Assembly: GCA_045124835.1 (NCBI GenBank)
Contig: JBGVMO010000153.1
Span: 1-53,984 of the forward strand
Direction: 5' to 3'
DNA length: 53,984 nt
Origin: Eubacteriales bacterium
GTDB lineage: Bacteria > Bacillota > Clostridia > Oscillospirales > CAG-272
Shown: in pieces, positions 36 to 5,906 of the stretch
How positions within the stretch are numbered: position 1 is the stretch's first letter
Layout of the letters: each line of letters starts with the position of its first letter
Translations under genes and position numbers: made by a program
The notes under the pieces: model-generated
What the model was told of the DNA's origin: nothing
Database searches by the model: none
The model's input: only the letters and a program-made list of their open reading frames with translations

Positions 36-76
36 AAAAGGACTGTTGTGCTACGGCATGACAGTCCTTTTTGTTT
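36..76 (+). terminator. Rho-independent terminator-like hairpin immediately upstream of the helicase gene
   Basis: AAAAGGACTGT (36-46) pairs with ACAGTCCTTTT (61-71) around a 14-nt loop. It runs into TTTTTGTTT. Confidence 0.6.
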
Positions 77-121
77 CAAAAATAGCAGAAGACTTACCGT
101 AGAGAGAAAGGAGGCGTTCTT

Positions 122-3100
122 ATGCAGCATACCTTTGGCGAAATGTCCTTTACCCTTGACGACGGCGTGATTGATCTGCCGCTTGACCTTGACAGCCTTT
201 TGGAAACGCCGTTTACAGAAGACGGAGAGGGGCCCAAAATTGAAAATGTGTTTGACGCCTTTATTCTTTGTCTGAACACCTATTGCGGCGTCAGGCTCGA
301 TTATATCGCCACCTTGACGGGAAAAACCGAGCAAGAGGTTGTTTCCGAACTGCGCGGCAAAATCTTTGAAGACCCTATCAGCCACGAGTGGCTGACGGGA
401 GACGTTTATCTTTCGGGTAACATCTTAACCAAGCTTGCCATTGCCAAGGAGAATAACGAAGACGGGCGCTATCAGGAAAATATTCGCGCCCTTACGCGCA
501 TTCTTCCGCCCAACGTCAGCACCGAGAATATTTTTATCACCCTTGGCTCTCCTTGGGTGCCTCCCGATATTATAGACGATTTTATTGTCAACCTCATCGG
601 TGAGCGAATGTCTTGGGGCAAAAATAACGAATATGCAACGCGCTACGATGCGGGAACGGGTATATGGGAAATCCCCCATAAAACGCGCTACCGCGGCGGT
701 AAGTACGCCATAAAAAACCGCAACACCTACGGTACGGTGCGCTATGAAATGCTCTATCTGATTGAGGACACCCTCAATATCAAAACCATCGCCGTGTATG
801 ACGAGGTACCTGATCCGATGAGCACCAAATTCGGCAAAACGGTGCGCGTGCTGAATAACGTTGAAACGGCGATGGCCCTGCAAAAGCAGGCCGAGCTTGT
901 GCGCTTGTTTCAGGATTGGGTCTGGCGCTCACCCCAACGCAAAAAGCGCTTGAAAACCATCTATGAGGAGCGCTACGGGCGCGTGCGCGTCCATCATTAT
1001 GACGGATCGTTTTTGCTCTTCCCGGGCATGAATCCCGCCATACGCCTGTATTCCTACCAAAGAGACGCCGTTGCAAGAATTTTGTTTTCTCCCAACACGC
1101 TTTTGGCGCACAACGTCGGTGCAGGTAAAACCTACACGATGATAGCCGCGGGAATGGAGCTGCGGAGAATGGGTATTGGTAAAAAGAATCTTTACGTTGT
1201 GCCAAACACCCTTGTCGGCCAATGGCGTGAAAAATTCCTTTGTCTTTATCCGTATGCAAAAATTCTGGTGGTGGAGCCCAAGCATTTCACGCCCCAGAAC
1301 AGAGGAAAGACGCTTTCTCGTATCAGAGACGAGGATTTTGACGGTATCATTATGCCCTATTCCTGCTTTGATGCCATTCCGCTTTCCGTTGCACACTACG
1401 AAAAAATGTATAAGGACGAGATGGCCGCGCTTGAAAAGGCAGAGAACGTCTTTTATTCTCCCTACATCATCAAGCGCAAAAAGCAAACGCTGGAGCGCGC
1501 GATGAAAAAAAATCTTGCGCGCCTGCAAAGCGGCATTGCCTTTGACGAGCTTGGGGTAACCACCCTTTTCGTTGACGAGGCGCACAACTACAAAAACATG
1601 CCCGTGGATACCAAAATCGACACGATTTACGGTATGAGACGGGATGGATCCAAGAAATCCTACGATATGCTCAGCAAGGTGCGCGCCGTGCAGAACGCCA
1701 ACAACGGCCGCGGCGTTGTCTTTGCAACGGGAACGCCGATTACGAACTCCATTACCGATCTTTTCGTGATGCAAAAATATTTGCAGAATGGAGAAATGGG
1801 GCTTTTGGGCCTTGCCCAGTTTGATTCGTGGGTGGGTATGTTCTGCGAAAAGGAGCTTGACTTTGAGGTGGACGTGGATACCAGCAAATTCCGTATGGCC
1901 ACGCGCTTTTCCAAGTTCCACAACTTAACGGAGCTGACGGCGCTTTTGTCCTCGATTGCCGATTTCCACCGTTGCAACTCCAAGGAAAACGGTCTGCCTG
2001 AATTTCGTGGCTATACCGATGTCAAAATTTTGGGAACGGCGCCCTTCCGCGAATACCTGCGGGACATTTCAAGGCGCGCGGATGACGTGCGCCATCGCCG
2101 TGTTTTGCGCAGCCAGGACAATATGCTGAAAATTTCCTCGGACGGACGCAAGGCGGCGCTTGATTTGCGCTTGATAAACAGCGGCTACGGCAACGGCTTT
2201 ACCGGCAAGGTGGAGGCCTGTGCCGAGAACGTTTTGCACATCTATCACGCGACAACCCCGAGCCGCGCAACCCAGCTTGTATTCTGTGACGTTTCCACGC
2301 CCAAAAACGATTTTAACGTCTACGATGAAATGAAGCGGCTTTTGGTGCAGGGCGGTGTACCTGCCTCTGAAATAGCGTATATTCACGATGTAGGAGATAG
2401 CATCACCAAAAGAGATATGCTCTTTGAAGCGGTGCGTGAGGGAGAAATCCGCGTGCTGCTCGGCTCAACCTTCAAGCTTGGCCTTGGCGTTAACGTCCAA
2501 GACCGCCTGATTGCCGTGCATCATCTTGACGTACCTTGGCGCCCCTCCGATATGGTGCAAAGAGAGGGCCGCATTCTGCGACAGGGAAATGGGAACAAGC
2601 AGGTCTTTATTTACCGTTACATAACCGAGGCCAGCTTTGACGCGTATTCATGGCAGATACTTGAAACCAAGCAGCACTTTATTGAGGAGCTTCTGGCAGG
2701 ATCGCTCTCCGAGCGAGAGGGCGAGGACGTTGACAGCACCGCACTCAACTATGCGGAGGTCAAGGCGCTTGCCATCGGCAATCCGCAAATCAAGCATAGG
2801 GTCGAGGTGGCCAACGAGCTTTCCCGTCTCTCTATGCTGCGCCGAGGTGCTCTTGAGGAGCGGCGGCGTATGCAACAGGAGCTGGCCGACCTTCCCTCGA
2901 TGGTGGAGGATGTCAAGGAGCGCATTGCGGCCTGCGAAAAGGATATTTTGCTGTATGCAGAAAGAAAGCGCGAGCTGAGCCCCGAGGAAAAGGAGGAGTA
3001 TCGCTTGCGGCTTGATAAGGCGGTGCAGGCGAACCGCGGTGTGACGGAGGAGGTCTTCGTGATGGAGTACTTCGGCTTCCGCATCGTGATTCCTGCTTAT

Positions 3101-3379
3101 ATGAGTATGTACCATTATAGCCTTGACGTTATCGGTAACGGCAAATACCGCCTCCCCTGTAACAGCGAGGAGGGGCATTTGCGGCGACTTGATTCCTTTT
3201 TAGAGGGGCTAAACGGATATCTGGCGGGGCTTGGCGAAAAGCTGAAGAATTTTGCCGCGCAAAAGCGCGCTTTGCAAAAGGAGCTGCAAAAAACCGAGAC
3301 CTACGGTGAGACCATCGAGGCCTTGCAAGAGGAGCTTGAAAAAATTGATAAAGAATTGGGGATAAAGGACGATGAATAA
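122..3379 (+). CDS. SNF2/DEAH-type superfamily-2 helicase (ATP-dependent translocase), stand-alone, with no methyltransferase domain
   Basis: 1085-aa ORF with RBS AAAGGAGG upstream of the ATG. Motif I is NVGAGKTYT, motif II is LFVDEAHNYKN, motif III is FATGTPITNS and motif VI is QREGRILRQGN. The roughly 280-aa C-terminus is charged and coiled-coil-like (ELADLPSMVEDVKERIAACEKD..., LQEELEKIDKELG). Confidence 0.8.
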   Translation: MQHTFGEMSFTLDDGVIDLPLDLDSLLETPFTEDGEGPKIENVFDAFILCLNTYCGVRLDYIATLTGKTEQEVVSELRGKIFEDPISHEWLTGDVYLSGNILTKLAIAKENNEDGRYQENIRALTRILPPNVSTENIFITLGSPWVPPDIIDDFIVNLIGERMSWGKNNEYATRYDAGTGIWEIPHKTRYRGGKYAIKNRNTYGTVRYEMLYLIEDTLNIKTIAVYDEVPDPMSTKFGKTVRVLNNVETAMALQKQAELVRLFQDWVWRSPQRKKRLKTIYEERYGRVRVHHYDGSFLLFPGMNPAIRLYSYQRDAVARILFSPNTLLAHNVGAGKTYTMIAAGMELRRMGIGKKNLYVVPNTLVGQWREKFLCLYPYAKILVVEPKHFTPQNRGKTLSRIRDEDFDGIIMPYSCFDAIPLSVAHYEKMYKDEMAALEKAENVFYSPYIIKRKKQTLERAMKKNLARLQSGIAFDELGVTTLFVDEAHNYKNMPVDTKIDTIYGMRRDGSKKSYDMLSKVRAVQNANNGRGVVFATGTPITNSITDLFVMQKYLQNGEMGLLGLAQFDSWVGMFCEKELDFEVDVDTSKFRMATRFSKFHNLTELTALLSSIADFHRCNSKENGLPEFRGYTDVKILGTAPFREYLRDISRRADDVRHRRVLRSQDNMLKISSDGRKAALDLRLINSGYGNGFTGKVEACAENVLHIYHATTPSRATQLVFCDVSTPKNDFNVYDEMKRLLVQGGVPASEIAYIHDVGDSITKRDMLFEAVREGEIRVLLGSTFKLGLGVNVQDRLIAVHHLDVPWRPSDMVQREGRILRQGNGNKQVFIYRYITEASFDAYSWQILETKQHFIEELLAGSLSEREGEDVDSTALNYAEVKALAIGNPQIKHRVEVANELSRLSMLRRGALEERRRMQQELADLPSMVEDVKERIAACEKDILLYAERKRELSPEEKEEYRLRLDKAVQANRGVTEEVFVMEYFGFRIVIPAYMSMYHYSLDVIGNGKYRLPCNSEEGHLRRLDSFLEGLNGYLAGLGEKLKNFAAQKRALQKELQKTETYGETIEALQEELEKIDKELGIKDDE

Positions 3380-4484
3380 TACAACGGGGAATCTTTCCGT
3401 TTTGTCGGCAGACGGCGTTGTTTCGCAGCTGTCGGGGGCGTATATTTCCGTAATAGAGAAGGGCTTGCCCTTGAAGCTCTTGCCTGCGTTTATGCTCTGG
3501 GGCCCTCCCGGCGTGGGTAAATCGCAGGCGGTAAGGCAGGTGGGCGCGCGCATTCAGCAAAAAACGGGAAAAAAGGTTAAGGTGACAGACGTGCGCCTTT
3601 TGCTCTTCAATCCCATTGACTTGCGCGGCATTCCCACGGCCAACGCGGAAAAGAACCTCGCTATCTGGTTGAAGCCGCAGATTTTTGATATGGACCCCTC
3701 GGATAGCGTTGTCAACATTCTGTTTCTGGATGAAATCTCGGCTGCACCCCAGTCGGTGCAGGCGGCGGCCTATCAGATAACCTTGGATAGAGTGGTCGGC
3801 GAGCATCGCTTGCCCGAAAACTGCATCGTTATCGCCGCAGGCAACCGCGTCACCGATAAATCCGTGGCCTATAAAATGCCCAAGGCGCTTGCCAACCGTC
3901 TTTGTCACGTTGAGGTGGAAAGCAACTTCGAGTCTTGGCGTCGCTGGGCGGTCGGCGCAGGTATTCATCCCAAGATTCTCGGCTTTCTTTCCTTCCGCGC
4001 CGACAGGCTTTCGGTGTATGATGCAGGGTCGGACGATTTGGCATTCCCAACGCCGCGTTCTTGGGAGATGGCCTCCTCGCTCTTGACCTATGCCTCGGAC
4101 GACGTGGATAAAATCTATCCCTTGCTCGTCGGCTGTATCGGTGCCGGCGTGGCAACCGAGCTTCGCACATGGTGCAAGGTGTATACCACCCTGCCGAATA
4201 TCGCCGATATTTTCGCAGGTAGAATGCCGCCGATGCCCACCTCAACCGATGCGATGTACGCCTTGGTTTCCTCTATGACGGCCTATGCCAAGGAGCATCA
4301 GCAGGATATGAACGCCATTGCCAATTCCGTGCGCTATGCAACAAAGATGCCCACCGATTTTTCCGTGGTGCTGTTCAAAAATTACGTGGCCTTCGGTACG
4401 GCCTTCAAGGATAAATTGATGCGTTTGCAGGAGGTACAGGAATATGCCAGAACAAAGGGCAGGTTCCTTGGCGGAATTTTCTGA
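3372..4484 (+). CDS. AAA+ ATPase, MoxR/AAA_5-like
   Basis: 370 aa. Walker A is LWGPPGVGKSQ, Walker B is ILFLDEIS and the sensor region is VIAAGN. The ATG overlaps the helicase stop by 8 nt (GATGAATAA). Confidence 0.75.
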   Translation: MNNTTGNLSVLSADGVVSQLSGAYISVIEKGLPLKLLPAFMLWGPPGVGKSQAVRQVGARIQQKTGKKVKVTDVRLLLFNPIDLRGIPTANAEKNLAIWLKPQIFDMDPSDSVVNILFLDEISAAPQSVQAAAYQITLDRVVGEHRLPENCIVIAAGNRVTDKSVAYKMPKALANRLCHVEVESNFESWRRWAVGAGIHPKILGFLSFRADRLSVYDAGSDDLAFPTPRSWEMASSLLTYASDDVDKIYPLLVGCIGAGVATELRTWCKVYTTLPNIADIFAGRMPPMPTSTDAMYALVSSMTAYAKEHQQDMNAIANSVRYATKMPTDFSVVLFKNYVAFGTAFKDKLMRLQEVQEYARTKGRFLGGIF

Positions 4485-5814
4485 GGCAGAGCAAAGACGC
4501 TATGCGATGCGCTTAGTAACGGCAAGAACGCGTCTTCTGTGGTATCACGGCTTTTACGGCCTCTTGCTGATGCACGTGAAGCTCTCCTTGGATGCGGCCT
4601 GTCAGACGGCCTATACCGATTCGGAGCGCATTGCCTTCAACCCAACCTTTTTGGACTCTCTTTCCGACGAGGAGGTTGACTTTGTTTTGATGCACGAGGT
4701 GATGCATATCGCCCTTGCCCATTGCTTTCGATCGGAGGGGTATCAACGCCGCCTTTACAATATTGCGGCGGATATCGTTGTCAATTCCAACATCGCGAAG
4801 GCCGGCGGCAATATCACCTTAAAGCAGTATGGCGAGTGTATGCATCTTGCCCCTGATGGCAAGGAGGGCTATCTTTATTCGGCCGAGGAGGTCTATCATA
4901 TGCTGTTAGACGAGCTGGATAAGCAAAAGTCGAAAAGCCAAAGCGGCAAGGATAGCAAGAAGGGAAAAAGCAGTCAGGATAGCGGAAGCGGCGGTAGTGA
5001 CGATAACGGCGAGGAGCAAGCGGATGACGAGGGCGGTGCTTCGCCCGACAGCGCCCAAGCAGGAAGAGAAAACGAGGACGGTGTCGGCGAGGGAACGCGC
5101 TTTGATGATCATTCCCATTGGGACAAGGCCAAGGAGGAGAACGCCTATATGCAGGATGCCTGGCGAAGCCACGTGCTTTCGGCGGTGGAGGCTATCTCCC
5201 GTAGTGCAGGTGACGTTCCCTTGGGTATCGAGCGCGCCATTGCCGAATGGCAGGCACCCCAAACGGATTGGAGAACCGTGCTGAACGATTTTGTGCACGA
5301 GGAGGTTTGCGACTATTCCTTCTCGCCGCCCGACAGGCGCTTTTCGGATTCTCCCTTCTTTTTGCCCGATTTCAACGATACCGAAACGGTTATCGAGGAC
5401 GTTTTGTTCTTCGTGGATACCTCGGGATCTATTTCCAATTCTATGCTGACGGTGGCCTTTTCCGAAATCAAGGGGGCTATCGACCAGTTTGACGGAAAGC
5501 TGCGCGGCCATCTTGGCTTCTTTGACGCAGAGGTCTATCCTCCCGTGCCCTTCGAGAGCGTCGAGGAGCTGACGAAAATTCGCCCGAAGGGCGGCGGCGG
5601 TACCTCCTTTGAGGCCATCTTCGATTACGTGCAAAGGGAAATGTCTGAATACACCTTGGCTTGTATCGTCATTCTGACGGATGGCTATGCCACCTTCCCC
5701 GATGAGAAGGAGGCTATGGGCATTCCGGTGCTTTGGATAATCAACAACGAGGAAAAAACAGCTCCTTGGGGCAAGGTCACGCGCATCAAGGAGGAAAAAA
5801 AGAAAAGACGCTGA
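4444..5814 (+). CDS. VWA (MIDAS) domain protein with an N-terminal zincin-like putative metallopeptidase domain (DUF2201_N/DUF2201-like architecture)
   Basis: 456 aa. The HExxH motif is HEVMHIALAH. A Ser/Asp/Gly-rich low-complexity linker runs from KSKSQSGKDSKKGKSSQDSGSGGSDDNGEEQADDEGG. The MIDAS-like motif is FFVDTSGSIS. A strong RBS (GGAGGT) lies 9 nt before the ATG. The gene overlaps the AAA+ gene by 41 nt. Confidence 0.7.
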   Translation: MPEQRAGSLAEFSEAEQRRYAMRLVTARTRLLWYHGFYGLLLMHVKLSLDAACQTAYTDSERIAFNPTFLDSLSDEEVDFVLMHEVMHIALAHCFRSEGYQRRLYNIAADIVVNSNIAKAGGNITLKQYGECMHLAPDGKEGYLYSAEEVYHMLLDELDKQKSKSQSGKDSKKGKSSQDSGSGGSDDNGEEQADDEGGASPDSAQAGRENEDGVGEGTRFDDHSHWDKAKEENAYMQDAWRSHVLSAVEAISRSAGDVPLGIERAIAEWQAPQTDWRTVLNDFVHEEVCDYSFSPPDRRFSDSPFFLPDFNDTETVIEDVLFFVDTSGSISNSMLTVAFSEIKGAIDQFDGKLRGHLGFFDAEVYPPVPFESVEELTKIRPKGGGGTSFEAIFDYVQREMSEYTLACIVILTDGYATFPDEKEAMGIPVLWIINNEEKTAPWGKVTRIKEEKKKRR

Positions 5815-5867
5815 AAAAGCGTCCTTTGAGGCCTGTCGCGCAAGTGACGGCCGTGTGCTTTGAAAAA

Positions 5868-5906
5868 AGCCTATCCGACAGTAAAGACTCGGATAGGCTT
5901 TTTTTA
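5868..5906. terminator. Bidirectional intrinsic terminator between the convergent VWA gene and the RNHCP gene
   Basis: AGCCTATCCGA (5868-5878) pairs with TCGGATAGGCT (5889-5899). The hairpin has an A-run on its 5' side and TTTTTTT on its 3' side. Confidence 0.8.

Follow-up and report, generated by a model that had tools for sequence, protein, structure and literature searches.

A MoxR-VWA candidate conflict module with a DarB-type Snf2 helicase partner in gut Clostridia

We describe a cassette of three genes in a 53,984-nucleotide (nt) stretch of DNA from an Eubacteriales bacterium (contig JBGVMO010000153.1), which is referred to as the window and to whose positions all coordinates refer. The genes encode a Swi2/Snf2-type helicase (gene 1), a MoxR-like AAA+ ATPase (gene 2) and a zincin metallopeptidase joined to a von Willebrand factor A (VWA) domain (gene 3). 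The trio is a candidate nucleoside triphosphate-dependent conflict module of the MoxR-VWA kind with an unprecedented partner, a Snf2 helicase of the DarB type. It is widespread, well conserved and distinctive in mechanism, and its proposed function rests on association. With a probability of roughly 0.5 we regard it as an undescribed defence-type system against mobile elements, in which DNA translocation would be coupled to targeted proteolysis.

Conservation of the trio

The survey covered one genome per GTDB species (185,579 species genomes). Relatives of gene 3 were found in 355 of them, and the best 80 loci were fetched. The order gene 1-gene 2-gene 3 was the same in every locus with sufficient upstream DNA, approximately 75 species-level loci, and relatives of gene 3 with 98%, 64% and about 52% identity lie in at least five different chromosomal contexts, all with this order. 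The overlaps between the genes are conserved as well: genes 1 and 2 share 4 nt in 41 loci and 8 nt in 25 (66 in total), and genes 2 and 3 share 14 nt in 53 loci, 17 nt in 12 and 41 nt in six (71 in total). Pairwise distance matrices of the three proteins correlate with r = 0.87, a value as high as this occurring in none of 999 Mantel permutations. The three genes are co-inherited, co-evolve and move as a unit among unrelated chromosomal contexts. An earlier note on this DNA, made from the letters of the window, had proposed to survey whether a SNF2 partner recurs across unrelated genomes. The trio does recur as a conserved neighbourhood in widely differing contexts, and a chance juxtaposition is ruled out by the roughly 75 species loci with the trio and by the conserved overlaps.

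Nearly all hosts are metagenome-assembled genomes of gut Clostridia, namely Oscillospirales (including Acutalibacteraceae and Ruminococcaceae), Christensenellales and Lachnospiraceae. A minority comprises a few genomes labelled Erysipelotrichales and one Eggerthellaceae.

Operon organization

The cassette is a self-contained, translationally coupled operon of three genes (Table 1). The stop of gene 1 and the start of gene 2 overlap by 8 nt, ATGAATAA, and genes 2 and 3 overlap by 41 nt if translation of gene 3 starts at ATG-4444. An alternative start, TTG at 4468, leads to a 17-nt overlap. Because this reproduces the overlap of 12 other loci, the true start of gene 3 is uncertain. In the window lineage ATG-4444 adds a nine-residue N-terminal extension (4444-4470) that was not found in other gene 3 orthologues.

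Gene 2 is preceded by the Shine-Dalgarno sequence AAAGGA/GGGGA before ATG-3372, and gene 3 by GGAGG 9 nt before ATG-4444. Of the two bracketing hairpins, the downstream one has an A-run before and a U-run after it and is therefore a bidirectional terminator. The equivalent of the upstream hairpin closes the rplM-rpsI unit in close relatives (rpsI lies upstream in the near-identical locus L001), and this unit is found just beyond the window edge. No sigma-70-like promoter was detected in the 45 nt (77-121) between the upstream terminator and ATG-122; the operon may be transcribed by read-through from the rplM-rpsI unit or from a weak promoter. A search of Rfam returned no RNA element. The co-directional reading frames with overlaps of 8 and 41 nt, a Shine-Dalgarno sequence before each gene and the two terminators had all been read from the sequence in the earlier note, and we confirm them.

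Predicted properties of the three proteins

Gene 1 shows the two RecA-like lobes of the Swi2/Snf2 family together with motifs I (GxGKT), II (DExH) and VI (QxxGRxxRxGQ/N), and Pfam assigned ResIII, SNF2-rel_dom (29.3 bits, cutoff 24.9) and Helicase_C. The respective sequences GAGKT, DEAH and QREGRILRQGN are invariant across 25 orthologues (G333, G335, K336 and T337; D485, E486 and H488; Q813 through N823). The AlphaFold model has a mean predicted local distance difference test score (pLDDT) of 71, and a Foldseek search with it retrieved Snf2 remodellers with E-values from 7e-12 to 1e-9: SMARCAD1, CSB, Mot1, Chd1, ISWI and RapA, and also ZorD. Sequence searches of the PDB gave generic Snf2/XPB matches only, and an exact-sequence look-up found no match. 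The best match of gene 1 is phrog_10089, annotated as DarB-like antirestriction (2.8e-233, 778.8 bits), in which residues 38-1047 align to positions 2105-3162 of 4647. As this match concerns the helicase section only and Pfam finds no methyltransferase in gene 1, the protein therefore represents a stand-alone DarB-type helicase module. Judged by its motifs and modelled fold, gene 1 is an active-looking translocase of the Swi2/Snf2 type that moves on duplex DNA and displaces or remodels bound proteins.

The C-terminal tail of gene 1 includes a helix from residue 888 to 948 in the AlphaFold model and is likely a candidate docking platform for the MoxR/VWA module. A C-terminal IDKxLG motif in it (D1076, L1079 and G1080 are invariant; window 3347-3379) coincides in part with the gene 2 ribosome-binding site. 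It could be conserved either as a docking or MIDAS-ligand peptide or because of the ribosome-binding site itself. At the other end of the protein, conservation among orthologues begins at the motif DLPxDWEN and the tail preceding it is hypervariable. Orthologues of 1200-1341 amino acids (aa) carry low-complexity, highly charged N-terminal extensions (e.g. L011:4884-5750, L037:5087-5690); the window protein has no such tail.

Gene 2 matched the Pfam families AAA_3 (29.9 bits, just above the cutoff of 27) and AAA. Walker A (GPPGVGKS), Walker B (ILFLDEIS) and the sensor motifs are conserved in 73 orthologues. The profile phrog_1297 is matched at 3.5e-89 over positions 27-344 of 356, a homologue on a plasmid is annotated as MoxR family ATPase, and the PDB sequence search gave generic RFC matches only. 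The motifs point to an active-looking AAA+ ATPase of the MoxR class. As is typical of MoxR-VWA pairs, the adjacent gene encodes a VWA protein with a complete metal ion-dependent adhesion site (MIDAS).

This adjacent gene 3 product belongs to PF13203 (DUF2201_N, 6.4e-39) and PF09967 (DUF2201, VWA-like, 4.3e-16), and matches phrog_1314 at 5.6e-83 over positions 3-393 of 394. Its N-terminal domain has the HExxH motif, a third metal ligand and the conserved fold of zincin metallopeptidases. H84, E85, H88, H93, C94 and D110 are invariant in 21 orthologues, as is the MIDAS motif DTSGS...GGGGT...TDG of the C-terminal domain. The linker between the two is hypervariable in length and sequence. Weak similarities of the zincin domain concern SprT-like proteins (6.7e-05, below cutoff), M48 and the minigluzincin MJ1213. 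The Foldseek matches of the VWA domain were the integrin I domain, NorD of the NorQD complex and the MIDAS domain of MDN1/Rea1; this domain dominates the search with gene 3, so that the closest structural relatives of the zincin domain are masked. The PDB sequence search gave integrin and minigluzincin matches only. Gene 3 joins an intact zincin active site to an intact VWA domain of the MIDAS type, and catalysis is predicted.

The Pfam domains that the earlier note had expected for the three genes were returned exactly. The motifs it had listed (GAGKT/DEAH/QREGRILRQGN, GPPGVGKS/ILFLDEIS, HExxH and MIDAS) are conserved or invariant in orthologues, and the long C-terminal tail of gene 1 and the disordered linker of gene 3 can both be seen in the structure models.

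Table 1. Positions of the cassette, its parts and its immediate flanks in the window.
Feature	Position	Strand	Basis
Upstream intrinsic terminator	36-76	+	hairpin, -24.6 kcal/mol, z -6.8; then UUUUUGUUU (U-run); inverted repeat I6
Gene 1 Shine-Dalgarno sequence (GGAGG) and spacer	108-121	+	direct sequence reading; GGAGG 6 nt before ATG-122
Gene 1, Swi2/Snf2-type translocase, stand-alone DarB-type helicase module, 1085 aa	122-3379	+	Pfam, phrog_10089, Foldseek
Gene 1, N-terminal accessory region (about aa 40-290)	239-991	+	precomputed Pfam of orthologues: WH_1, DUF8437
Gene 1, superfamily 2 motor core (aa 300-860), GAGKT, DEAH, QREGRILRQGN	1019-2701	+	invariant alignment columns, Pfam, fold
Gene 1, C-terminal tail (aa 877-1085)	2750-3376	+	long helices and small beta domain; AlphaFold model, pLDDT 81-90
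Gene 2, MoxR-like AAA+ ATPase, 370 aa; AAA core about aa 39-190, C-terminal domain helical	3372-4484	+	Pfam, phrog_1297
Gene 3, zincin metallopeptidase, disordered linker, VWA/MIDAS, 456 aa	4444-5814	+	PF13203, PF09967, phrog_1314, model, Foldseek
Gene 3, predicted metallopeptidase domain (about aa 10/14-166), HExxH(x4)HC	4483-4941	+	pLDDT about 90
Gene 3, Gly/Ser/Asp/Lys low-complexity linker (aa 168-218)	4945-5097	+	pLDDT <50; alignment columns 170-310
Gene 3, VWA domain with complete MIDAS (D325, S327, S329, T387, D413)	5392-5784	+	invariant columns; Foldseek
Bidirectional intrinsic terminator between gene 3 and the convergent RNHCP gene	5863-5904	.	-24.7 kcal/mol, z -7.3; perfect 16-nt inverted repeat I3
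RNHCP-domain zinc-ribbon protein, 115 aa	5904-6251	-	PF12647, 7e-27; directly after mnmE

Relatives in phages and plasmids

Phage-collection sequences with 31-40% identity to gene 1 form the helicase part of giant proteins. These giants measure 1955-3176 aa or more, the relatives at 36-38% identity having 1955-3176 aa, and neither gene 2 nor gene 3 was found near the genes of the DarB-like giant proteins examined. A relative of gene 3 is present on 92 plasmids and in 598 phage records, which come from jumbo phages such as phage G, from N4-like phages, cyanophage S-TIM5, Thermus phiFa and Campylobacter phages; the identity of the pair reaches 52% for gene 2 and 36% for gene 3. All phage and plasmid loci examined have a MoxR gene near the zincin-VWA gene and no Snf2 helicase within 10 kb. 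The pair occurs without the helicase in lytic phages and plasmids; the helicase link is therefore specific to one Firmicutes clade.

The N4-like phage phiFa and phage G carry the pair among early or replication genes and not among structural ones, and a Burkholderia conjugative plasmid has it beside a type IV secretion system (T4SS)/PRTRC region. From group 2.2 jumbo phages, a MoxR protein paired with a vWA protein that bears an N-terminal metallopeptidase has been reported, with a proposed role in virion assembly and processing (Iyer et al. 2021, PMC7824862). Genes 2 and 3 as a pair are thus already known, and what is new is its coupling to the helicase in one Firmicutes clade. That the nearest outgroup relatives of both halves belong to mobile elements suggests that the host recruited counter-defence parts.

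On the Synechocystis plasmid pSYSA (L097, 26352-28630) we observed a pair without helicase among toxin-antitoxin genes (PIN-like, HepT-like, GNAT/DUF1778) and a DUF262 gene of the GmrSD family, and this region looks defence-related, too.

Comparison with described systems

Closest in architecture is the jumbo-phage pair (PHROGs 1297 and 1314), in which a MoxR ATPase likewise stands beside a protein whose N-terminal domain is a zincin and whose C-terminal one is a VWA domain, and which genes 2 and 3 match over full-length profiles. The genes of phage and plasmid pairs are often separated by others, whereas the pair of the trio lies on bacterial chromosomes and is coupled in translation to a helicase. 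DarB-like proteins (P1 DarB type, phrog_10089) share the helicase module with gene 1, including the accessory domains at its N-terminus and the greater part of its C-terminal tail. They are phage- or ICE-encoded giants (ICE, integrative and conjugative element) of 1955-4647 aa that bear methyltransferases. Gene 1, in contrast, has 1085 aa and neither a methyltransferase nor a transglycosylase domain, is chromosomal and is coupled to MoxR/VWA genes.

Kaur, Burroughs, Iyer and Aravind (2020, PMC7159879) described MoxR-vWA ternary conflict systems, predicted to act in biological conflicts, in which the vWA protein may have a peptidase as its effector, in rare cases a metallopeptidase, and Snf2 helicases are rare effector domains. 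These systems are defined by a third component of the VMAP, iSTAND or FtsH type and were reported mainly from multicellular bacteria. The MoxR and vWA core is common to them and to the trio. The trio, however, has a DarB-type Snf2 helicase as its third gene and no VMAP or iSTAND component, and it is hosted by gut Clostridia. Only 18 of 77 loci have an adjacent gene of the FtsH-like or AAA_lid_6 type, the window not being one of them. RavA-ViaA, NorQ-NorD, CbbQ-CbbO and Rea1/MDN1 also combine an AAA+ protein with a MIDAS-bearing VWA partner, but they have no protease fused to the VWA domain and no DNA translocase as partner, and their clients are metabolic enzymes or pre-ribosomes.

A Swi2/Snf2 motor is found in several defence systems (DISARM DrmD, Zorya ZorD, BREX BrxHII, Dpd DpdE, Hma HmaA). 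Searching PADLOC-DB v2.0.0 we obtained for gene 1 only partial matches to the C-terminal lobe (DrmD at 5.9e-14, PbeA, DpdE, ZorD and others), and for genes 2 and 3 nothing meaningful (only E > 0.003). Helicases of conflict systems gave gene 1 its best profile matches. The NCBIfam scores of gene 1 reached 42.3 bits vs a cutoff of 610 for DrmD (NF038317), 23 vs 1500 for ZorD and 29 vs 500 for DpdE. Membership in DISARM, Zorya, BREX or Dpd is ruled out by scores this far under the cutoffs and by the lack of partner genes; DrmA, DrmB and the methylase/DrmC partners of DISARM are not present beside the trio.

The earlier note had named the lack of a PADLOC hit as support for novelty, and no PADLOC model fits the trio; its comparison of the helicase with that of DISARM has to be replaced by a DarB-type assignment. 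Its suggestion of an unnamed system holds insofar as the trio matches no described system in the resources searched, but not for the gene 2-gene 3 pair, which was known before (PMC7824862). The possibility it had raised against itself, that genes 2 and 3 travel without the helicase, applies to lytic phages and plasmids but not to the trio loci of the one Firmicutes clade. A description of the trio was not found in the literature searched, in which coverage of subscription journals is mostly lacking.

Genomic neighbourhood

The context in the window lineage was read from a relative with a 98%-identical gene 3. The trio of the window and its close relatives is flanked by rplM-rpsI on one side and by RNHCP-mnmE-jag-yidC-rnpA on the other, and the remaining genes of the window belong to the core (ProRS, ArgRS, RNase Y, DnaK and RpoB). 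The RNHCP gene is kept in relatives both with and without the trio and is therefore part of the mnmE flank and not of the cassette. Sister lineages, whose MnmE is 61-63% identical, show the synteny ABC-transporter-rnpA-yidC-jag-mnmE-RNHCP followed by lipid-synthesis genes, and have no trio. As it is missing from lineages of the same synteny, the trio therefore represents an accessory unit at a synteny break, just where the earlier note had placed one beside mnmE. In a metagenome scan for MnmE the trio was found at none of 80 mnmE loci of other lineages, which serves as a negative baseline only, these lineages being distant (at most 45% identity).

Statistics on the flanks cover 77 species-level loci with 144 immediate neighbours, which match 79 different Pfam families. 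A WYL(+WCX) regulator occurs at most five genes away in 28 of the 77 loci, or in 19 of the 42 with at least eight known flanking genes, and is adjacent in 10. Tandem genes for GmrSD type IV restriction stand upstream of the trio in five loci, and genes of the Mrr_cat or GIY-YIG type fill a variable slot near it. Further recurrent neighbours are an IetA-like AAA protein, an FtsH-like AAA-M41 protein, Metallophos, UDG and a DUF2779/Cas4-like nuclease. Retron reverse transcriptase, Cas3 and PDC-S02 were seen once or twice, genes for AP-endonuclease and NT5C are also among the neighbours, and recombinases make up two of the 144. The recurrent neighbours constitute a defence-island signature, and the flanks are enriched in defence genes. 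The setting in defence islands that the earlier note had wanted checked is thus often found elsewhere, whereas the cassette of the window itself sits among core genes. No WYL gene occurs in the window or within about 5.7 kb upstream in the near-identical locus.

A location as prophage or ICE cargo was considered and is not supported: the flanks are chromosomal and heterogeneous, the window has no flanking repeats and the trio occurs on only two short IMG/VR contigs.

In approximately 18 of the 77 loci a co-directional two-gene module adjoins the trio (e.g. L072:12400-15343, L048, L058, L062 and L096). It consists of an AAA+ protein and a 275-aa protein without Pfam match. The AAA+ protein is either a 680-aa protein of the AAA+AAA_lid_6 type, which matches IetA in PADLOC, or a 425-aa FtsH-like AAA-M41 protein without transmembrane segments. 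The two genes stand on opposite sides of the trio in L048. This module could belong to the trio as an accessory, or could be an uncharacterised defence system in its own right.

Proposed mechanism and alternative explanations

The three products most likely act as one ATP-dependent complex. By analogy with NorQ-NorD, CbbQ-CbbO and RavA-ViaA, the VWA domain would dock on a MoxR hexamer and its MIDAS could capture an acidic residue of a substrate, which the AAA+ ring would remodel by ATP hydrolysis and the fused zincin would cut. Snf2 biology further suggests that the motor would track duplex DNA and meet bound proteins, bringing the protease to the DNA via its conserved helical C-terminal tail. 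The targets of the protease could be proteins on invading DNA, or a host target that is cleaved to abort infection once the motor meets foreign DNA. One may go further and assume that the trio provides immunity or genome surveillance by a mechanism of a new class, in which proteins on the DNA are targeted and not the DNA itself, a proposal that we consider unlikely. Snf2 would then patrol and deliver an AAA+-powered, MIDAS-guided zinc protease to DNA-bound invader proteins or crosslinked proteins. Genome-end protectors, relaxases and anti-restriction proteins would be candidate targets, and the trio would correspond in bacteria to the SPRTN/Wss1-p97 logic of eukaryotes, with parts recruited from phage or ICE counter-defence.

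Several points weigh against a role in defence. The trio of the window and its close relatives sits among core genes and not in a defence island. It is conserved like or above the neighbouring housekeeping proteins (78% identity for gene 1 and 82% for gene 2, vs 69% for MnmE), and such conservation in the window lineage is unusual for a defence system. Classical toxic effectors, nucleases among them, are absent from the trio. Lytic phages and conjugative plasmids have homologues of the gene 2-gene 3 pair, which can thus be of use to mobile elements and need not oppose them. Physical interaction of the three proteins is deduced from operon structure only, guilt by association is the main functional argument for defence, and WYL regulators also control DNA-damage responses.

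One alternative is genome maintenance, where Snf2 would find DNA-protein crosslinks or roadblocks and the MoxR unfoldase and the zincin-VWA protease would degrade them, similar to SPRTN/Wss1 with p97/Cdc48 or to stripping of the CSB/Mot1 type combined with proteolysis. The closest folds of gene 1 are indeed the protein-displacing Snf2 enzymes CSB, Mot1 and RapA. WYL regulators can be DNA-damage regulators (PafBC, DriD) and their genes are enriched near the trio; the neighbours UDG, AP-endonuclease, Metallophos, DUF2779/Cas4-like nuclease and NT5C are consistent with such a role, as is the strongly conserved position among core genes in the window lineage. The SprT-like similarity of the zincin fits as well, but it is weak and sub-threshold. 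The patchy distribution, with hundreds of the 185,579 species genomes but not the sister lineages, and the highly variable contexts argue against maintenance, and the restriction-type neighbours (GmrSD, Mrr, retron reverse transcriptase, Cas3) suit defence better. We hold genome maintenance to be a less probable role, with the odds clearly against it. More doubtful still is that the trio is a domesticated or hitch-hiking module of a mobile element for counter-defence or establishment, that is, a chromosomal remnant or addictive element and not host immunity, which would combine a DarB-like anti-restriction function with a protease removing host factors. The DarB-like PHROG match of gene 1 and its 31-40% identity to the helicase modules of giant proteins would agree with this, as would the end-to-end matches of genes 2 and 3 to phage PHROGs and the location of the pair beside T4SS/PRTRC genes in Burkholderia and toxin-antitoxin genes on pSYSA. 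However, the loci are chromosomal, most flanks lack integrase, T4SS and phage structural genes, the orthologous trio is limited to two short contigs in IMG/VR and gene 1 has no methyltransferase domain. Intact reading frames and invariant catalytic sites across about 75 species also speak against a decaying remnant.

MoxR-VWA pairs are known as assembly chaperones (RavA-ViaA, NorQD, CbbQO). A classical chaperone that matures or assembles a complex, with the helicase being its client or an unrelated co-transcribed gene, would be in line with the Foldseek match of the gene 3 VWA domain to NorD and with the assembly or processing role proposed for the phage pair (Iyer et al., PMC7824862). Yet the strict three-gene linkage, the overlaps and the co-evolution connect the pair with its helicase, the surroundings of the trio show no conserved complex as a candidate client, and the pairs of phiFa and phage G lie among early or replication genes and not structural ones. 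This is the least probable of the explanations weighed here.

If the trio is a defence system, it would add a protease-based mechanism guided by a DNA motor to bacterial immunity. It would also offer the first functional access to the DUF2201 zincin-VWA/MoxR pair, which is widespread but uncharacterised and is also present in lytic phages (N4-like, jumbo, cyanophage) and on plasmids. With both halves nearest to mobile-element genes, it would further show clearly that counter-defence and defence exchange parts. Gut Clostridia of humans and animals commonly carry the trio, which may therefore shape the susceptibility of the microbiome to phages and plasmids. Should it be a repair system instead, it would represent a bacterial ATP-dependent route for removing proteins from DNA.

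Variants of the trio

A few loci deviate from the common form. In L091 (8779-10011) the cassette is decayed: in a single 410-aa open reading frame, approximately the first 170 residues of the helicase homologue continue in frame into the C-terminal part of the gene 2 homologue, the helicase core and the N-terminal part of the AAA protein are deleted and gene 3 is intact. L073 (9070-10008) and similarly L076 have an additional intact 312-aa open reading frame between genes 2 and 3. It is a diverged chimera of the N-terminal zincin of gene 3, with HExxH kept, and the C-terminal helical domain of gene 2, and apparently arose by tandem duplication across the gene 2/gene 3 junction and was kept in two species. 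In L036 (7961-8695) and L088 (9127-9861) a 244-aa NadE-like PP-loop gene (SGGKDSS) is inserted on the opposite (-) strand between genes 2 and 3 and disrupts their usual overlap. Such occasional decay and rearrangement (L091, L073, L076, L036 and L088) fits an accessory conflict system.

A different PP-loop/GMP_synt_C gene is found near the trio in eight loci. In the group of L011, L032 and L073 it lies two genes downstream, between conserved unknown proteins of 228 and 127 aa.

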